Positions 42,743 to 51,676 of a stretch of 64,000 bases of DNA are shown piece after piece. Made by a program: the position numbers and the translations under genes. The notes beneath the pieces were generated by a model. That model ran no database searches, had not been told where the DNA came from, and worked only from the letters and a program-made list of their open reading frames with translations. The DNA lies in NCBI GenBank assembly GCA_965217585.1, contig OZ244561.1, forward strand, positions 2,784,001 to 2,848,000, read 5' to 3'. Each line of letters begins with the position of its first letter. Position 1 is the first letter of the stretch. The DNA comes from Candidatus Latescibacterota bacterium. Its GTDB lineage: Bacteria > Latescibacterota > UBA2968 > UBA8231.

Positions 42743-44025
42743 GCCATTTGCTCCATGTCAATTTGGCCTGTAACTGCCGCTGAGATGAGTGCCGCTCGGC
42801 GCTCTTTGAGCAACACCGTGGTCCTTTCCGTAGCGTCGCGCAGCCCGTCCAACTTGCAGGTCTCATTCTCTATGTGGGCAACGATTTCGCGCTGCTCACT
42901 GAGCGGGGGTACAGGGAGTGAGACCGCGAAGAAGCCTTCTGGATAGAGGCGCAACCGGGATGACCACACACCCTTTGAGTATCTCGTTACCTCTTGAGCG
43001 AACGCCGACAAACGCACCAAGGCGTCGACATAACTCGGATCGAGGTGCGCTATAGGCTCATAGACGTTATAGGCCGGACTAACGATACCGTCTAAGGACG
43101 ACACACCCATCGCGCCCATCCATGCCCACATTGTATTGATTACGAGATCGCCCGAGAGGCAGATTTTGTATCCCTCTTTTGTCGCCGCCTCGAACATGTT
43201 GACGTCCTTTTCTGAACGAAGAGTCACGCCAGTGAGGTGCGACACAGTGAGGAGATCTTCTTCTCCCGTATCGGAACGTTCATCGCGTTCCCTGAACAAC
43301 CATCTTGCGCGTTCAGTTTCCCAATGCGCTGGAATTTCGCCAAGCCAAGGAATGCCGGAGTCACGGAGCGGGACGTTTGGGTTGATCCCACGGGAGACGG
43401 CGCGGGTGATGAGCGCTCGGCGCTTCTCGGCCAGAAACCTAAGCAGCCGCTCCTTCTCCGTCACCAGTGCATCCAGCCGCGCCGTCTCCCGGTCGAGGTA
43501 GTCGGCGATGGCGTGCTGTTTTGAAAGCGGCGGCACCGGCAACCTGACAGCCCCTATCTCAGATCTCGCTAGCCCAAAGCGAGTTACTCCATTCGCAGCA
43601 AGTTCCAGTTGCGTACATATCGGTTTTGCTTGGAGGCATCGGAGCAGGAATTCGCCTGCCAACTGGTGGCGGCGGGGACGAAGAAGCGCGAGGTGATAAC
43701 CGCATACAAGGTCGTCGGCTGTTTCCCGAACAAGCGCGGGGACACCTATATCATCCCATGATTCTGAATCCTTCGTGATGACAACATCGCCGATTTGTAA
43801 GCCGAACTTCTTGATTTCGTCCTCGGTTGCTGTTGCCTGCATGAAGTCGAGGCTCAAAAAAATAAAATCGTTGTTGTAAACGTCCGTGTAATTGCACAAT
43901 CGAACCGGTATTTCGTGGTCAACCGACAATTTATCGACGTTGCTCACCACATAATCAGTCGTTGCCCGGAGCGGCTGCACCTGCCACGACTCAGGCAGTG
44001 AGTTGACCCAGGCGAGGTGGCTCAC
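42724..44025 (-). CDS. hsdS: Type I R-M specificity subunit S
   Basis: PPLSKQHAIADYLD, EKRRALITRAV, DSGIPWLGEIPAHW and ERRAALISAAVTG motifs. Confidence 0.95.
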   Translation of the reverse strand: MSHLAWVNSLPESWQVQPLRATTDYVVSNVDKLSVDHEIPVRLCNYTDVYNNDFIFLSLDFMQATATEDEIKKFGLQIGDVVITKDSESWDDIGVPALVRETADDLVCGYHLALLRPRRHQLAGEFLLRCLQAKPICTQLELAANGVTRFGLARSEIGAVRLPVPPLSKQHAIADYLDRETARLDALVTEKERLLRFLAEKRRALITRAVSRGINPNVPLRDSGIPWLGEIPAHWETERARWLFRERDERSDTGEEDLLTVSHLTGVTLRSEKDVNMFEAATKEGYKICLSGDLVINTMWAWMGAMGVSSLDGIVSPAYNVYEPIAHLDPSYVDALVRLSAFAQEVTRYSKGVWSSRLRLYPEGFFAVSLPVPPLSEQREIVAHIENETCKLDGLRDATERTTVLLKERRAALISAAVTGQIDMEQMAWKLPR

Positions 44026-46010
44026 TCGGTCACCTCTCTCAACAGTCGCATGATCTTCTCCTCCGCCTTCTTCAGATCCGCGTCAATCTGTTCCAGTGGC
44101 CGCGGCGGCGTGTACTTGTAGAAGTGGCGGTTGAAGTTGATCTCGTAGCCGACTTTGTCCTTGTCTCGGTCCATATAGGCGTCGGGGACATGAGGCGCTA
44201 CCTCGCGCTCGAAGTAGGCGTCGATGTCGTCTTTAAGCGGCACGTTCTCGAAGTCGCGCAGCGCGGTGTCAGGTTCGTAGCCTTTCTCCCGGCCATCTTT
44301 CCTGACCCGCTCGGCTTGCGGATCCTTCTCGGTGAAGACATCTCGGAAGAGCTTCTGTTCCGTCTTCTTCCAGCGCGATTGGCGCTCATGCAGGAGATCG
44401 GCGATGCTCTCCCACGTCGCATTCCAGTCGCACTTCGGCTCTCGTCCCAACGCCTTGTCTATGGCCTGCACATCGTCGAGCAAATACGGGCAGGCATCGA
44501 GAAAACGGGACTTGTCTTCTATGGTCATCTGGTAGCGCAAGCGCAGGGGTTGCTCCACGGTCACGCGTGTGTAGCCGAAGTCATCGTTGTCGAAAAGCTT
44601 GGAGCGTTCGCCATCCTCAAAGCGGCCATATAGCCGCACGATCTCCTCAATCTGCTCTGCGGCGATGTGGCGGCGCTTGTCGCCAAGGCTGCGCTTGTTG
44701 TCTTCACTCCCTCCCGCGGTCCACAAGTCGCGGGCGTCGAGAAGCTGGATTTTCCCCTGCCGCCGCTCCTCTTTGCGGTTGGTGACGATCCATACGTAGG
44801 TGCCGATGCCGGTGTTGTAGAACATCTGTTCCGGCAAGGCGATGATGGCTTCGAGCCAATCGTTTTCGATGATCCACTTGCGAATGTCGCTCTCGCCGGA
44901 GCCAGCACCGCCGGTAAAGAGCGGCGAGCCGCTGAACACGATGGCCAAGCGCGAGCCGTGCTTGTGCTCGTCTGGGCGTACTGGCTCAAACTTGTGGGTC
45001 ATATGCTGTAAGAAAAGCAGCGAGCCGTCATTCACTCGCGGGAGTCCAGCGCCGAAGCGGCCCTCGAATCCGAGCTTGTCGTGTTCTCTCTGGATATCAT
45101 TCTTCTGCCTCTTCCAGTCCACGCCGAAGGGCGGATTGGTGAGGAAATAGTCGAAGGTCTCACCCTCGAATTGATCGTCCGTAAGGCTGTCGCCGAAGCG
45201 GATGCTGTCGCCGCCGCCGTTGTGGTCAACCTGCTTCATCAACATGTCGGAGGCTGCGGTGGCAAAGGCGCGGTTGTTATAGTCCTGCCCATAGACGTAG
45301 AGCCGGGCAGCGCCGTGGTGCTCTCGCAGGTAGTTTTGCGCCTCGGCCAACATGCCGCCGGTGCCGCAAGCGGGGTCGAGGAGCTTACGCACGGTGCCGG
45401 GTGTGGCGAGCAGTTCGTCGTCGTGAATGAAGAGGATACTCACCATTAGCCGGATGACTTCGCGTGGCGTGAAGTGATCGCCCGCAGTCTCGTTCGCCAA
45501 CTCGTTGAAGCGGCGGATGAGATTCTCGAAGAGGAGTCCCATTTGCTCATTCGGAACTCTATCGGGGTGCAGGTCCACATCGCAGAACTTCGAGACGACG
45601 AGGTACAGAATGTTGGACTCGCGCATCTTCTCGATTTCGGTCTCAAAATCGAAACAGTCGAAGAAAATGCGGCGCACGTTGGCCGAAAAGCCTTGGATGT
45701 AGCTGACGAGGTGCGGGGCGATGTTGTCTGGATCGCCCTTGAGCTTCTCGAAATCGAGCGGCGAGTGGTTGTGGAAGCGCTGGCCGGCAGCCCTGTTCAG
45801 CCTAACGTCGAGTGCGTCGCCGTGGAGCCTGTCGCTCCAGCGGTCGTACTCGGACAAGACAGCGGACTTGGTCGGAGCGAGTACGCAGTCGAACCGCCGC
45901 AGCACGGTCATAGGCAGCATGACGCGCTCGTACTGCGGTGGGCGGTAGGGACCGCGCAGCAGGTCGGCGATCTGCCAGATCAGGTTGGCGAAGTAGCTGT
46001 GGTCAGGCAT
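44022..46010 (-). CDS. hsdM: Type I R-M methyltransferase subunit M
   Basis: IWQIADLLRG, GDHFTPREVI, DPACGTGG, NPPF and GYEINFNRHFY motifs. Confidence 0.95.
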   Translation of the reverse strand: MPDHSYFANLIWQIADLLRGPYRPPQYERVMLPMTVLRRFDCVLAPTKSAVLSEYDRWSDRLHGDALDVRLNRAAGQRFHNHSPLDFEKLKGDPDNIAPHLVSYIQGFSANVRRIFFDCFDFETEIEKMRESNILYLVVSKFCDVDLHPDRVPNEQMGLLFENLIRRFNELANETAGDHFTPREVIRLMVSILFIHDDELLATPGTVRKLLDPACGTGGMLAEAQNYLREHHGAARLYVYGQDYNNRAFATAASDMLMKQVDHNGGGDSIRFGDSLTDDQFEGETFDYFLTNPPFGVDWKRQKNDIQREHDKLGFEGRFGAGLPRVNDGSLLFLQHMTHKFEPVRPDEHKHGSRLAIVFSGSPLFTGGAGSGESDIRKWIIENDWLEAIIALPEQMFYNTGIGTYVWIVTNRKEERRQGKIQLLDARDLWTAGGSEDNKRSLGDKRRHIAAEQIEEIVRLYGRFEDGERSKLFDNDDFGYTRVTVEQPLRLRYQMTIEDKSRFLDACPYLLDDVQAIDKALGREPKCDWNATWESIADLLHERQSRWKKTEQKLFRDVFTEKDPQAERVRKDGREKGYEPDTALRDFENVPLKDDIDAYFEREVAPHVPDAYMDRDKDKVGYEINFNRHFYKYTPPRPLEQIDADLKKAEEKIMRLLREVTE

Positions 46011-46090
46011 GAGTGCGTACGCTCAAAACAGGATTCAATCCGTATCAGGTGGGGGCAAAATTTCTTATCCGCGCTTCTGTCCATAGGCCG

Positions 46091-46477
46091 TCAAGGCTCC
46101 GAGAGGGATTCGACCTTTTCTTCAAGCCACGAGTTCAATTCGGTGAATCGGAATGAACTAGCTTCGAACATCCGCATGAAGAAGGCGTATGCCTTATCGT
46201 TGTCGCAGTTGATGAAGTGGCCGTTCATGCGCAGAAAGGTGTCGGTGACGAAAAAGGCGACCCGCTTATTGCCGTCCACGAATGCGTGATTGTTGGCTAG
46301 GCTCTCCATGAGAGCAGCCGCTTCTTGGATAAGCCCGTCGTAGTATCCAAGCTGGGGGCGCATGAGCGCAGAGGCGAGAGCACCTTCATCGCGGAGGCCC
46401 TGTGAGCCGCCAAATGCACTAATCAGGGCGTTGTGCATGGCGATGACTTCCTCGATGGTTGGGAAGTCATGGGTCAT
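46091..46477 (-). CDS. doc: Doc/Fic family toxin
   Basis: NHAFVDGNKR motif; GLRDEGAL.SAL.RP. Confidence 0.9.
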   Translation of the reverse strand: MTHDFPTIEEVIAMHNALISAFGGSQGLRDEGALASALMRPQLGYYDGLIQEAAALMESLANNHAFVDGNKRVAFFVTDTFLRMNGHFINCDNDKAYAFFMRMFEASSFRFTELNSWLEEKVESLSEP

Positions 46478-46704
46478 TTGGCCAACAATTCACCTAGGCG
46501 ACGATTTTTCTCGACACTGGCCTGAAAATGGGCCATAACCGAGGCCCGGCGCTTTTCCTGAGCGCGGTTTTCAACGTATTCCCGCATGGCCTCTTCCAGC
46601 ACCGCTTGGAAATGACGACCTTCCTTGCGGGCAATTTCGCGCACTGCGGCCAGCAACTCTGGCGAAGCCTGACTAGAAAATTTCTCTCGTAGCACAGCCA
46701 TCAC
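46474..46704 (-). CDS. Putative antitoxin (ribbon-helix-helix-like)
   Basis: Small ORF overlapping the doc start; KFSSQ...REIARKEGR....LEEAM. Confidence 0.7.
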   Translation of the reverse strand: MMAVLREKFSSQASPELLAAVREIARKEGRHFQAVLEEAMREYVENRAQEKRRASVMAHFQASVEKNRRLGELLAK

Positions 46705-46724
46705 TATACCCCCTTTTGTATCGT

Positions 46725-46765
46725 TATATAGAATTGTGGGAGCAATGTGTCAAGAAATATCTTGA
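46725..46765 (-). promoter_or_regulatory. Sigma70-type promoter and palindromic operator of the TA pair
   Basis: Minus-strand TTGACA (46748-46753), 17 bp, TATATA; palindrome TCAAGAAATATCTTGA at 46750-46765. Confidence 0.5.
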
Positions 46766-46782
46766 TAGAAATGGGCAGAAAG

Positions 46783-47216
46783 CGTCGCAGAGCACCGCGA
46801 GAACCCGGACTGCGACGAGTGCGCGTGACCGTGCGAGGCCCGGCTGAGTTCCGCGCTGATTATGGCAGGGGCACGGCACCGGCCCGGCGGGTGTGGGGCG
46901 GTACTGATTAAATCCACATTCCCCGTCTAACTACGGGAGCCTCCGCGCTCGTCGAGCGAGCTTTGGCAGAACCCGGGTCTATTCACGGGGGGATACACCG
47001 CGCCCCTGCTGAGAATGGCGAACGGAAGAGACGCGAAGCCCTGTTGCTGATTCGCTGAGGAGCTTCCGGTGCTGAGTGGTTAGCCGCTATGTGGTTGAGC
47101 GGCTTTACCGGATAATTGGGTTATCATCCCTGAGGTCGCGCGTTACAGTGCGCGCCGCGTCTGGGCTATGCGCCGTCACCGGCGCAGTCGCACTTGCTTC
47201 CCTGTCTCTTCCGTTC
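46783..47216 (-). ncRNA. Candidate multi-domain structured RNA downstream of the DIP1984-like gene
   Basis: No ORF in the track. 13-bp closing stem 47020-47032/47204-47216, 12-bp stem 46865-46876/46998-47009, 8-bp stem 46783-46790/46810-46817, internal hairpins including a GUGA tetraloop, six UCAGC motifs. Confidence 0.65.
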
Positions 47217-47225
47217 TAGTTGTCT

Positions 47226-47762
47226 TTACTGTTCGTCAGCATATTCCACCTCTACCTCGAACGACGCGGCGCGGATCTGCCGATTGAGCTGGCGGAACTC
47301 GACGCGCGCCTCGTCGAGACGGGTGCGGCAGTCGTCGTAGGGCAACTCGTTGTCTTCGACGATGTCGCGTTCCTCTTTGTGGAGGACCCGCTCGTACGCG
47401 GAATCGACGACTTGGGTGTGTAGTTCTCCGAGGCGGTCGTTGAGCGCTTTGCGGGTCTCGAGGGCCTCAGTGAGGCTCATGTCGTCGCCCCCGTGTTCAA
47501 CGCGGTGCTCGAAGTTGGCACGCTGGATCGCGGCGTTCAGCTTGCGGCGTTTGAATTCGAGGGTGCGCAACTGGTCGCGTGCCTCGGAGACGCTGAATCC
47601 AGGTGCTGGCCGGCGCGAGAAGTCGTTGTCTCGACGGGGGAACAGATCTCGATTCTGGCGCGCCTCGGGCAGGCAGTCGCGCAGCGTCTTGATGCGGGCG
47701 TCGTACTCGCCGCGCAGTTCGAGGGCTTCGTAGAGTCTGATGGTATTTCTGGCTTCGGTCAT
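47226..47762 (-). CDS. DIP1984/septicolysin-like (DUF6847-like) coiled-coil protein
   Basis: Two-fold internal repeat L.EAL..R......I/L..L ... L...I..ANF/ASF; strong AAGGAGGTGA RBS. Confidence 0.7.
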   Translation of the reverse strand: MTEARNTIRLYEALELRGEYDARIKTLRDCLPEARQNRDLFPRRDNDFSRRPAPGFSVSEARDQLRTLEFKRRKLNAAIQRANFEHRVEHGGDDMSLTEALETRKALNDRLGELHTQVVDSAYERVLHKEERDIVEDNELPYDDCRTRLDEARVEFRQLNRQIRAASFEVEVEYADEQ

Positions 47763-48872: not shown

Positions 48873-50633
48873 TCACTCCCGGATCGCTATGTGCAACTCC
48901 CGCAACTGCTCAGGCGACACTTCTCCCGGAGCGCCCATGAGCGGGTCCTGCGCATTCTGGTTCATCGGGAAGGCGATGACCTCCCGTATGTTCGGTTCGT
49001 CCGCCAGCAGCATGACGATACGGTCGATGCCGGGTGCGATGCCGCCGTGAGGCGGAGCGCCGTAGCGCAAGGCGCGGATCATGCCTCCGAACCTGCGATC
49101 CACTTCCCGCCGCGAGTGTCCGGCTATCTCGAACGCCTTGTACATGATGTCTGGTCTGTGATTGCGGATGGCACCGCTCGACAGTTCGAGGCCGTTGCAG
49201 ACGATGTCGTACTGATATGCCTTGATCTCCAGCGGCGGTTGGCTCTCCAGAGTAGCCATGCCACCCTGTGGCATGGAAAACGGATTGTGCGAAAAGGCCA
49301 CGCAAGCGCGTTCTGCGTCCCATTCGTACATGGGAAAATCGACGACCCAGCAGAATTCATAGCAGCCCTCCCGCCGCAAATCGAGCCGGTCTGCCAGGTG
49401 TAGGCGCAACCGTCCCGCTAGGGCCGCGGCCTCGGCTGGTGGCCCGGCTATAAAGAAAATGGCTGATCCCGGAACGGCTGCACACTTTTCGATAATGCGA
49501 CTACGCACGCTTTGTTCTAGGGCCGCGGCGATTGAGCCTGTGGCCTGTGCTCCGTTGATGAGGTACGCCAGTCCCTTGCCGCCCGCTTCTTTGACGAATG
49601 CTTCGAGGCTGTCGAAAAACGAGCGCGGCTGCGCCTCTAGCTCGGGAACGCACAGGGCGCGGACGACCCCTCCTGCTGCGACGATGTCCCTGAACAGCCT
49701 GAACGAAGATTCTGCGAAGATCGCGGAGAGATCTTGGATTTCGAGCCCGAAGCGCAGGTCTGGTTTGTCCGTGCCGAACCGCAGCATGGCGTCGGCGTGG
49801 GAGAGACGCGGGAACGGCGGCGCGGTCACTTCCCAATCGGTGAACTCGCGAAAGAGACCGGAAAAGAGTTCCTCGACCACAGCAAAGACATCCTCCTGCT
49901 CGACAAAGGCCATCTCGAAGTCGAGCTGGTAGAATTCGCCGGGGGAGCGGTCAGCGCGGGCATCTTCGTCGCGGAAGCAGGGCGCGATCTGGAAATAGCG
50001 ATCGAAGCCGGATACCATCAGCAACTGCTTGAACTGCTGCGGTGCCTGCGGCAGCGCGTAGAAGTGGCCGGGATAGAGCCGGCTTGGCACGAGGTAATCG
50101 CGCGCGCCTTCGGGTGAGCTGTTGGTGAGAATGGGCGTCTGGAACTCGGCAAAGCCCATGCCCGTCATGCGCCGTCTGATGCTGGCGATCACGTCCGAGC
50201 GGAGCTGAATGCGGCGGTGCAGCCCGGCCCGACGCAGGTCGAGGAAGCGATAGGACAATCGGGTGCTCTCGCCCACTTCGGGATCTTCGGCCACGGAAAA
50301 GGGGAGCGGCTCCGCCGACGAGAGCACTTCCAACTCGCGGACGGCGATTTCCACCTCTCCGGTTTTCATGGCGCTGTTGATGGTCGCAGGCGACCGTTCG
50401 CGTACGTCGCCTACGATGCGGATTACGGATTCGCGCGGGATTTTTGCCGCGGTTGCCGCAGCGTCATTCTCCGGCGAGATCACGAGCTGGGTGATGCCGT
50501 AGTGGTCGCGCAGATCTAGGAACAGTACGCCTCCGTGGTCCCTGCGGCGGTGGATCCAGCCGCTCAGGCGAATGGTTTGGCCGGCGTGGCGCTGGCGGAG
50601 TTCGCCACAGGTGTGCGTGCGATAGCGGTGCAT
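48873..50633 (-). CDS. aspS: Aspartate-tRNA ligase, probably non-discriminating (Asp/Asn)
   Basis: [33 protein letters not shown] and [13 protein letters not shown]. His in RRDH is the usual ND-type residue. Confidence 0.95.
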
Positions 50634-50644
50634 GGTAATCTCCT

Positions 50645-50686
50645 AAAAACAGAAAACCCGCCGCGATGCGTGTTCGCGACGGGTTT
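50645..50686 (-). terminator. Attenuator terminator upstream of aspS
   Basis: AAACCCGTCGCGA-ACACGCA-TCGCGGCGGGTTT 13-bp stem followed by TCTGTTTTT, just before the aspS RBS. Confidence 0.85.
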
Positions 50687-50715
50687 GGATTCTCAGATTG
50701 GGTTGGAGTCAGTCG

Positions 50716-50784
50716 TCAGAACACGCGCAATGAGGCCAGCGGGTTATTATTATTCTGCGTGCGGTCATTCTGACGAGTCATCAT
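50716..50784 (-). CDS. Asn-rich leader peptide MMTRQNDRTQNNNNPLASLRVF
   Basis: 22 codons with an AAT AAT AAT AAC run, located between a promoter and the terminator. Confidence 0.8.
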   Translation of the reverse strand: MMTRQNDRTQNNNNPLASLRVF

Positions 50785-50792
50785 GGTCGTCT

Positions 50793-50820
50793 AAGATAGA
50801 GGAACGCCGAATTCCGTCAA
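50793..50820 (-). promoter_or_regulatory. Sigma70-type promoter for leader-aspS
   Basis: TTGACG, 16 bp, TATCTT, ending 8 nt before the leader ATG. Confidence 0.6.
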
Positions 50821-50912
50821 GCCGAGCTAGGCCGCGCTTGCTGGCCCCGTGCGCTTGCTTTGAGAATCCAATGTGACTACAATTATCTCAATGTAGTTAC
50901 AAGGAGATCGCA

Positions 50913-51179
50913 ATGAACGCATCCGTACGCGACCTGAAGAGCAGGTTGTCGCGCTACCTTCAGCAAGTCCAGCGGGGAGAGACGGTCGTCGTAACTTCGA
51001 GGGGGAAGCCCATCGCCCGCCTCGTGCCGCTGCCGTCCCTCCCGTTGGAAGAGCGGCTGGCAACCTTGCCGGGGGTCAATGCCGGGACGGGGGAAAAACC
51101 GAGAGGTGCGACGCACCCCGTGCGCGTCAAACCCGGAGAGAAAAGCGTTGCGGACATCGTGGTGGAAGAGCGACGGTGA
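50913..51179 (+). CDS. Phd/YefM antitoxin
   Basis: SVRDLKSRLSRYL..V..GE.VVVT.RGKPIARLVP. Confidence 0.9.
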   Translation: MNASVRDLKSRLSRYLQQVQRGETVVVTSRGKPIARLVPLPSLPLEERLATLPGVNAGTGEKPRGATHPVRVKPGEKSVADIVVEERR

Positions 51180-51676
51180 TCCTCTTTCTCGACACATCGG
51201 CTCTCGTCAAGCTGTACGTCGAGGAGGCCGACTCCGATACGGTGCGTGGCTGGGTGGATGTGGCCGAGGAAATCGCCTGCCAATGGCTCGCATACGTGGA
51301 GGCGCGATCCGCTTTGGCTGCCAAACGGCGTTTGGGCGACCTGTCCGATGCAGAGTTGGCGGGATGCAAGAAGGAGCTGGAGCAGGATTGGGAGCGATAT
51401 CACCGTGTCGCGGTCACCCAGACCCTGCTGCGACGAGCCGGTGCTCTGAGCGAGCAACTCGGCGTACGCGCCTATGACAGTGTTCACCTTGCGGGGGCTG
51501 AGTATCTGCAATCCTCGCTAGGAGTGCCGATAACCTTCGGGTCCTTCGACCGCCGACAGGTCGATGCTGCCGCCCGGCTTGGAATGCCCATCGCACCGGT
51601 CGATGACGATCCGGACAAGGGCGAAGGCAATAGCCAAACCCTAACTAGCCCCCCAACAAAAGGACAACTCCCATGA
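51176..51676 (+). CDS. vapC: VapC PIN toxin
   Basis: FLDTSALVKLY..E and RAYDSVHLA motifs. Confidence 0.9.
   Translation: MILFLDTSALVKLYVEEADSDTVRGWVDVAEEIACQWLAYVEARSALAAKRRLGDLSDAELAGCKKELEQDWERYHRVAVTQTLLRRAGALSEQLGVRAYDSVHLAGAEYLQSSLGVPITFGSFDRRQVDAAARLGMPIAPVDDDPDKGEGNSQTLTSPPTKGQLP

Follow-up and report, generated by a model that had tools for sequence, protein, structure and literature searches.

The window considered here is a 64,000-nucleotide stretch of the genome of a Candidatus Latescibacterota bacterium (GenBank assembly GCA_965217585.1, contig OZ244561.1, positions 2,784,001 to 2,848,000). On its minus strand, it carries a gene, aspS, for an aspartyl-tRNA synthetase (AspRS), preceded by a promoter-like site, a very short open reading frame (ORF) rich in codons for asparagine (Asn), a set of segments capable of alternative pairing, and an intrinsic terminator, an arrangement that resembles a transcription attenuator. 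The elements of the analysed region, in window numbering, are as follows:

50793..50820, minus strand: sigma-70-like promoter listed by a consensus scan, with TTGACG at 50820-50815, a 16-nt spacer and TATCTT at 50798-50793
50716..50784, minus strand: leader ORF of 22 codons plus stop, MMTRQNDRTQNNNNPLASLRVF, with ATG at 50784 and TGA at 50718-50716
50764..50769, minus strand: Asn-Asp codon pair AAT GAC, leader codons 6-7
50743..50754, minus strand: four-Asn codon run AAT AAT AAT AAC, leader codons 11-14
50768..50776, minus strand: region 1 (TCGTCAGAA), 5' arm of the anti-antiterminator helix 1:2, complement of 50721-50713
50713..50726, minus strand: region 2 (GCGTGTTCTGACGA), partner of region 1 or region 3, containing the leader stop codon
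50668..50681, minus strand: region 3 (CGTCGCGAACACGC), antiterminator partner of region 2, overlapping the 5' arm and loop of the terminator
50645..50686, minus strand: intrinsic terminator with a 13-bp stem (50686-50654), a 7-nt loop and the tail TTTTCTGTTTTT
48873..50644, minus strand: Shine-Dalgarno sequence AGGAG (50644-50640), which lies outside the terminator stem, and aspS, 586 residues, with ATG at 50633 (NF001750, 802 bits)

The consensus scan returned two promoter-like sites where 0.2 would be expected and three terminator-like sites where 0.7 would be expected. The end of the -10 box is separated from the leader ATG by only 8 nt and, given this closeness, the leader mRNA is probably leaderless or nearly so; no Shine-Dalgarno sequence precedes the leader ATG. 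Asn accounts for 5 of the 22 leader codons, four of them consecutive, as compared to 3.0% of the codons in the long ORFs of the genome. AAT, the minor Asn codon of this genome (35% of Asn codons), makes up 53% of the Asn codons in the leaders. The 3' end of region 1 (50769-50768) is shared with the sixth codon, for Asn, and the seventh, for aspartate (Asp), comes immediately afterwards.

Three mutually exclusive helices can form in this leader. Helix 1:2 joins TCGTCAGAA (50776-50768) to TTCTGACGA (50721-50713) by 9 perfect pairs (-18.8 kcal/mol); helix 2:3, the antiterminator, joins 50726-50714 to 50681-50668 by 13 pairs, one of which is G-U, and contains a bulge of one base (-19.1 kcal/mol in the nascent RNA); and helix 3:4, the terminator stem (50686-50654), consists of 13 pairs, including one U-G and 8 G-C (-22.0 kcal/mol). 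The minimum-energy fold of the 156-nt leader (-46.8 kcal/mol, z-score -2.86) comprises helix 1:2 and the terminator, and none of 200 shuffled leaders folded as well as the native one. With the leader masked by a ribosome that holds Asn6 or Asp7 in its A site, the antiterminator 2:3 becomes the minimum-energy fold; with the ribosome masked at the stop codon, the terminator stays. A preliminary description, made from the sequence alone, had proposed this promoter, an almost leaderless ORF of 22 amino acids with four consecutive Asn codons, and a set of exclusive helices ending in a 13-bp terminator with a U tract, likening the whole to the attenuators of trp, his and pheM. All these parts are present, with the ORF start set at 50784, and their order and register are those of that architecture; an amendment concerns helix 1:2, of which only 8 of the 9 pairs are kept in relatives. 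A search with Rfam cmscan (E up to 10) over 50300-51200 found no family above threshold, the T-box and the Phe, His, Thr, Trp and Leu leaders included, and its three sub-threshold matches (a microRNA, CrfA and a long non-coding RNA) were rejected as unrelated, chance similarities.

The evolutionary persistence of the leader was followed through a protein search covering 40 relatives (24 of the same genus and 16 other genomes of the class) and a scan of species-representative genomes, which contributed three further loci with aspS identities of 93%, 85% and 83%. One of the resulting 20 loci is cut within the gene and another inside the leader region, which leaves 18 with the full upstream sequence. 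The conservation that had been proposed as a check of the device was indeed found: in 17 of the 18 loci, an intact Asn-rich leader ORF, with 3-6 Asn codons, and the three helices stand upstream of the orthologous aspS. Of the 17 intact first leaders, 16 have one Asp codon and L027 has none. The first leaders differ by synonymous AAT/AAC and CAG/CAA changes, and two of them (L043 and L095, with aspS 85% and 83% identical) have acquired an in-frame insertion of 6 codons that adds Asn codons, their leaders being MLTRQKDRTCNNQANSGNNNPLAPLRVF and MMTRQNACTHNNPANPGDNNPPAPLRVF. Most related loci keep the promoter hexamers and the 8-nt distance to the ATG, the 8 nt themselves being variable, and the spacers vary as the attenuator is kept. 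Across the 18 sequences, with a mean column identity of 75%, paired cells amount to 98.3% for helix 2:3, 94% for helix 3:4 and 88.5% for helix 1:2; 9 of the 13 pairs of the terminator stem are invariant, and region 2 is almost invariant, synonymous sites included, the stop codon always falling inside it. One compensatory change, from U-A to C-G (L024), and one U-G occur in helix 2:3.

Two loci deserve separate mention. In one (L024:1268-1483), the promoter of the first attenuator is deleted, and this attenuator would have to be transcribed from the gene upstream. In the other (L026:1094-1308), where the promoter is degraded, decay has affected the first leader ORF as well as region 1, and a second attenuator is intact.

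Such a second attenuator, placed in tandem between the first one and aspS, is found in 12 of the 18 loci (L023, at 1321-1479; L014, L015, L017-L022, L026, L042 and L043), and a thirteenth locus, cut off by a contig end, shows the second unit only. This unit is different in sequence from the first and has a Shine-Dalgarno sequence, an antiterminator and a terminator of its own. Its leader, MTFRHKHTARAFSHNNDDNNPAIRARWRWP (...HNNDDNNP...), includes 4-6 Asn codons and 1-2 Asp codons and is intact in all 12 loci; when the unit is masked up to the last Asn codon, the antiterminator is the minimum-energy fold. The genome of the window has the first unit and no tandem unit.

Which aspS is placed under this control? 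The window-type gene occurs in 16 of the 24 genus relatives (89-96% identity) and is missing from the 16 other members of the class that were searched; all 41 genomes have another AspRS gene, aspS2, with a frame of 595 residues and about 44% identity. In a phylogenetic tree, the window AspRS falls in a clade of 19 sequences (support 1.0) that is sister to 74 sequences of alphaproteobacterial type (support 0.984) and far from aspS2; the closest homologues outside the genus are alphaproteobacterial, with 57-62% identity. The regulated aspS is most likely an accessory, horizontally acquired copy of foreign type rather than the housekeeping gene, a refinement of the earlier claim that aspS as such is regulated, which stands to the extent that the gene behind the attenuator is an aspS. 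In one genome of the genus, fragments of a window-type aspS (G022:C1:4024545-4025211; 88% identical, residues 384-586) contain two in-frame TGA stops; judging from its sequence, this is a decaying copy, a pseudogene, in a genome that also lacks the asparagine synthetase gene asnB.

Leaders of the same design precede yet another kind of aspS. An archaeal-type aspS above the cut-off of TIGR00458, the NCBI model for aspartate--tRNA(Asn) ligase, was detected in 8 of the 16 other genomes of the class and in 0 of the 25 genomes of the genus. In these sister families, a leader, for example MHIHYFQIAQFSGNNNDDNNPIRRRAGPA (...NNNDDNNPIRRRAGPA), and a terminator stand before 7 of the 8 TIGR00458-type genes (loci L125-L130 and L124; genomes G029, G033, G037, G039, G027, G036 and G030). 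Between the sister-family leader region and the tandem unit, 73 of 143 bases align, and corresponding positions are taken by the block of Asn and Asp codons, the Pro after it, the stop codon and a terminator stem of similar kind. We considered an in-place gene replacement between the window aspS and the archaeal-type aspS and found it unsupported, the flanks sharing only the synthetase genes; with no flank genes in common, the leader cassette was either shared or re-invented, and replacement in place cannot be claimed. Before the 73 examinable alphaproteobacterial-type homologues outside the genus, there is no Asn-rich leader (a match at L078 proved false and was discarded), and hence the leader did not arrive with the gene. 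The sister-family leader ends with IRRRAGP, which resembles the SecM arrest motif (GIRAGP); the resemblance may be due to chance or may be forced by the RNA hairpin that is encoded there.

The phylogenetic position of the window AspRS bears on its specificity. In all five alphaproteobacterial genomes tested, no asparaginyl-tRNA synthetase (AsnRS) scores over the cut-off, and the only class-IIb match is this aspS. It is established that, in the indirect pathway, AspRS must charge tRNA(Asn) where AsnRS is absent, so that the AspRS of these genomes must charge tRNA(Asn). Because its nearest outside homologues belong to genomes devoid of AsnRS and a look-alike leader is found before TIGR00458-type aspS, the window AspRS is probably non-discriminating as well. 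The RRDH motif, from which the preliminary description had deduced this property, is present (RRRDHGG), and its His has reportedly been linked to non-discrimination in work on the Pseudomonas aeruginosa AspRS; it is also found in aspS2, so it is no mark of the window copy. The His aligns with that of chains which the depositors named Asp/Asn ligases (4wj3, 4rmf and 5w25), and both AspRS paralogues align best with chains so named. Neither the RRDH motif nor resemblance to solved structures served to tell the paralogues apart, both being about equally similar to discriminating and non-discriminating enzymes.

The other components of the indirect route could be traced in the same genome. As had been suggested for checking, gatB (564.6 bits), asnS (470.7 bits) and the second aspS are all there, the search for the amidotransferase having covered gatB; the genome also has glnS (695.2 bits) and one gene each for tRNA(Asn)(GUU) and tRNA(Asp)(GUC). 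The presence of GlnRS leaves the formation of Asn-tRNA as the simplest explanation of the amidotransferase. In this genome, which is a single contig rated 94.6% complete, asnA was not found and no asnB match exceeds the cut-off (the best one reaching 52.9 bits). As no asparagine synthetase was found, the tRNA route would be the only source of Asn, i.e. Asn may be made only on tRNA here. In the genus, three genomes (G015-G017) have a full asnB and lack the window-type aspS, and G014 combines this aspS with a weaker asnB-family match (288 bits). An EpmA/GenX-like ORF (TIGR00462, 311 bits; L004:1135-2487, G000:C1:6366583-6367935) was also noted; its open frame of 450 residues is longer than the family profile by about 130 residues at the N-terminus.

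The aspS leader has counterparts before other synthetase genes. When the whole genome (7.3 Mb) was scanned for small ATG-initiated ORFs with an amino-acid run ahead of a strong terminator, the leader in the window was the only one with an Asn run, and two synthetase leaders with other codons emerged:

L122:328-435 (G000:C1:4022227-4022334), plus strand: Thr leader and terminator directly before thrS, from the genome scan
L123:215-274 (G000:C1:5707614-5707673), plus strand: Tyr leader and terminator before tyrS, from the genome scan

The Thr-rich leader before thrS (TIGR00418, 679 bits), which ends in ...PTPTTATTTTTMCAG, was recovered from 20 of 25 genus loci, and its Thr runs reach 12 codons. 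Of 23 genus loci, 21 retain the leader before tyrS (TIGR00234, 396 bits), MQNLRADRHYYYTPLHREG (YYY), the number of Tyr codons varying from 2 to 6. Within the tyrS leader, CCCC/GGGG/CCCC/GGGG segments suggest alternative helices. A looser scan of the terminators before long ORFs (561 ORFs), which excluded runs of A, R, G, S, P and L as too noisy and hence did not look for leaders of those kinds, added no synthetase leader to these; neither the housekeeping aspS2 nor asnS has a leader of this sort. Since the codons of the thrS and tyrS leaders name the amino acid that is supplied, the window aspS, by the same yardstick, would serve Asn-tRNA first and Asp-tRNA second.

On these grounds, we consider it likely that the element is a classical leader-peptide transcription attenuator, with Asn sensor codons and one Asp codon, which controls an accessory, acquired and probably non-discriminating aspS. 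The suggestion that this AspRS is regulated by Asn-tRNA rather than by its namesake amino acid is supported in that Asn codons dominate the leader; as nearly all first leaders keep one Asp codon and all second leaders have 1-2 of them, it is probable that both products of the enzyme are read, with Asn in the lead. What was observed is the anatomy and how it is conserved, and it is from this anatomy that every dynamic step in the following scheme is derived. Transcription would start about 0-2 nt before the leader AUG, and a ribosome would translate the 22-codon leader close behind the polymerase. With ample Asn-tRNA(Asn) and Asp-tRNA(Asp), the ribosome would reach the UGA codon and cover region 2, so that helix 3:4 would form and transcription would stop at the U tract before aspS; with no ribosome on the leader, helix 1:2 would sequester region 2, again yielding the terminator. 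When charged tRNA(Asn) is scarce, the ribosome would stall at codon 6, 7 or 11-14, with region 1 or the inner part of helix 1:2 covered or held apart: at Asn6 or Asp7, it would cover region 1, and at Asn11-14, it would cover the inner part of helix 1:2, between both arms. Region 2, thus freed, would pair with region 3 as soon as the latter is made, no terminator would form, and aspS would be transcribed. The extra AspRS would then produce more Asp-tRNA(Asn), to be converted to Asn-tRNA(Asn) by GatCAB and, if this is indeed the only route to Asn, the attenuator would be, in effect, the asparagine-biosynthesis attenuator of this organism.

Several observations weigh against this scheme or against parts of it. 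The main Asn run is outside region 1, in the loop between regions 1 and 2, and masking a ribosome at codons 11-14 leaves the fold at helix 1:2 plus terminator, even when a queued second ribosome is included; a stall at Asn11-14 would hence have to act by sterics and by the formation of helix 2:3 before region 4 is made, as happens in the classical systems. Translation of a leader that has no 5' leader of its own has to be assumed. Helix 1:2 contains uncompensated single mismatches in several relatives, and its outermost (ninth) pair exists in only 6 of the 18 sequences. All helices are near-invariant among these close relatives (aspS 83-96% identical) and, varying so little, show almost no covariation: shuffles match the observed covariation in 114 of 500 cases for helix 2:3 and in 467 of 500 for helices 1:2 and 3:4 combined. 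The public RNA record, i.e. four metatranscriptome runs available as contigs, consists of a few short pieces of low depth in which no starts or ends can be read. The best of these, a 168-nt contig over 50501-50668 with one mismatch, comes from run X10, whose record is labelled sponge metagenome. Such contigs do not reveal starts, ends or strand and might stem from carried-over DNA, and they were not counted as evidence of expression. As regards the pathway, four genomes (G004, G009, G022 and G023) possess gatB, glnS and asnS and lack both an intact window-type aspS and asnB, and G018 (58% complete) also lacks this aspS and asnB. The pattern in the former four genomes, along with the RRRDHGG motif that aspS2 shares, implies that aspS2 may also be non-discriminating and that the window copy may be dispensable, serving perhaps as an inducible booster and not as the only route.

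The most serious alternative accepts the attenuator as described and assigns another purpose to the gene: instead of an enzyme dedicated to Asn biosynthesis, its product would be an AspRS kept in reserve, which may resist an inhibitor and is induced when the housekeeping AspRS fails to charge tRNA(Asp) and tRNA(Asn). Such a role would fit an accessory gene with a patchy distribution (16 of 24 genus relatives, with a pseudogene in G022), of foreign type, lodged among defence and mobile-type genes, and missing together with asnB from four good genomes; the Asp codons kept in the leaders, as well as the tandem arrangement, which recalls the thrZ gene discussed below, are compatible with it, too. 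However, the first leaders hold 3-6 Asn codons versus 0-1 Asp codons, the thrS and tyrS leaders of the same genome carry cognate codons, and a look-alike leader in the sister families precedes an aspS of the tRNA(Asn)-charging TIGR00458 type. In addition, no inhibitor gene cluster is seen nearby. Accordingly, we regard the stand-by role as unlikely.

Another possibility is that the small ORF is not translated at all and that the choice between helices 2:3 and 3:4 is made by a protein, a tRNA or a metabolite, or else that the hairpins gate the ribosome-binding site of aspS. The conservation of the helix sequences, which exceeds coding needs, the lack of a Shine-Dalgarno sequence at the leader ATG and the position of the main Asn run outside region 1 could all be understood on such an RNA-only switch or translational control. 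What makes it quite improbable is that the reading frame and the Asn codons survive both synonymous changes and the insertion of 6 codons, that the stop codon never leaves region 2, and that two further leader types with different RNA sequences have a block of Asn and Asp codons in common with it; besides, Rfam yields no family above threshold, T-box included, and the AGGAG of aspS is not within the terminator stem. Finally, an accidental Asn-rich ORF before a plain constitutive or leftover terminator, inherited by close relatives, might account for the near absence of covariation among these relatives and for the decay of the first attenuator in L026 and the loss of its promoter in L024, but hardly deserves credence given that this is the sole small ORF with an Asn run before a terminator in 7.3 Mb, that it persists in 17 of 18 loci despite variable spacers, that two other leader sequences repeat the design, as do the leaders of thrS and tyrS with Thr and Tyr codons, and that an intact, conserved gene would be silenced by a constitutive 13-bp terminator placed immediately ahead of it.

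The attenuator reading thus retained can be extended, more tentatively, to the entire class, and we put forward this extension as a possibility rather than as an expectation. A portable Asn/Asp leader cassette, single or tandem, might have been placed before two foreign non-discriminating AspRS genes, one of alphaproteobacterial type in the genus studied here and one of archaeal type in the sister families, so that tRNA-dependent Asn synthesis would be controlled by its end product, Asn-tRNA, in the manner of a biosynthetic operon. Leader peptides with Asn/Asp, Thr or Tyr codons would then represent the general mode of synthetase control in this lineage, a role that the T-box has in Firmicutes.

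The genomic surroundings of aspS should be described as well. Downstream, at 44022-47762 of the window, also on the minus strand, there are an ORF of the DUF6847/DIP1984 family, an ORF with a Fic/DOC domain, preceded by a small partner ORF, and an hsdM-like gene for a DNA methyltransferase. Between aspS and this gene set, there are three small ORFs with no family match. The neighbourhood is of a variable, defence type.

Leader-peptide attenuation is a textbook mechanism for Trp, His, Phe, Leu, Thr and Ile/Val, the classical examples being the pheST attenuator of Escherichia coli, with its pheM leader peptide, and trpL, hisL, thrL and leuL. The device described here shares with them a codon-rich short ORF, a stop codon in region 2, exclusive helices 1:2, 2:3 and 3:4, and a terminator before the gene and, as with pheST, the target is an aminoacyl-tRNA synthetase. 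Unlike in pheST and the other classical systems, the codons sensed are those for Asn (plus Asp), not only for the namesake amino acid of the enzyme, the leader is seemingly leaderless, the main codon run falls in the interval from region 1 to region 2, a tandem pair of attenuators is present in many relatives, and no Rfam leader family matches. A different kind of parallel is provided by thrZ of Bacillus subtilis, an extra synthetase copy that is placed behind tandem T-box leaders, silenced by their terminators and induced by uncharged cognate tRNA. The extra synthetase copy behind leader terminators and the tandem regulatory units are common to both systems; T-boxes, however, read uncharged tRNA through RNA-RNA contact, whereas no T-box was found here and the proposed reader is a translating ribosome.

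With respect to the enzymes, the closest resemblance is to Thermus and Deinococcus, which reportedly (Becker and Kern 1998; Min et al. 2002) possess AspRS1, a non-discriminating AspRS2, GatCAB, AsnRS and GlnRS and make Asn by tRNA-dependent synthesis only. Here, too, there are two AspRS genes along with AsnRS, GlnRS and GatB, with asnA not found and no asnB over the cut-off, and the sister families have an AspRS of archaeal type, as is AspRS2. The second AspRS of the window genome differs from AspRS2 in being bacterial (alphaproteobacterial-like) and in standing behind an attenuator with Asn codons; we know of no such regulation in Thermus or Deinococcus.

Attenuators of synthetase genes have been treated by Seliverstov et al. 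2005 (PMC1262725); that paper cites pheST of gamma-proteobacteria as a synthetase attenuator and predicts attenuators before trpS2 in Streptomyces avermitilis and leuS in Streptomyces species. These Streptomyces cases resemble ours as computationally predicted leader-peptide attenuators before synthetase genes outside Proteobacteria, trpS2 being likewise a second gene copy, and differ from it in the phylum, in the amino acids and in having leader codons that match the synthetase's own amino acid. In the literature searched, subscription-only papers being outside the scope, we found no description of a leader with Asn codons or of an attenuator for aspS or gatCAB.

If the proposed mechanism is true, the indirect pathway of Asn-tRNA formation would be regulated by its own product, and the codons of a leader could reveal the purpose for which a synthetase paralogue is kept, in this case the supply of Asn rather than that of Asp. 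The leaders before the alphaproteobacterial-type and archaeal-type aspS genes would be a clear case of a single regulatory module that serves two enzymes which are not orthologous, and an uncultured lineage would be added to those in which leaders read by ribosomes, rather than T-boxes, control several synthetase genes.

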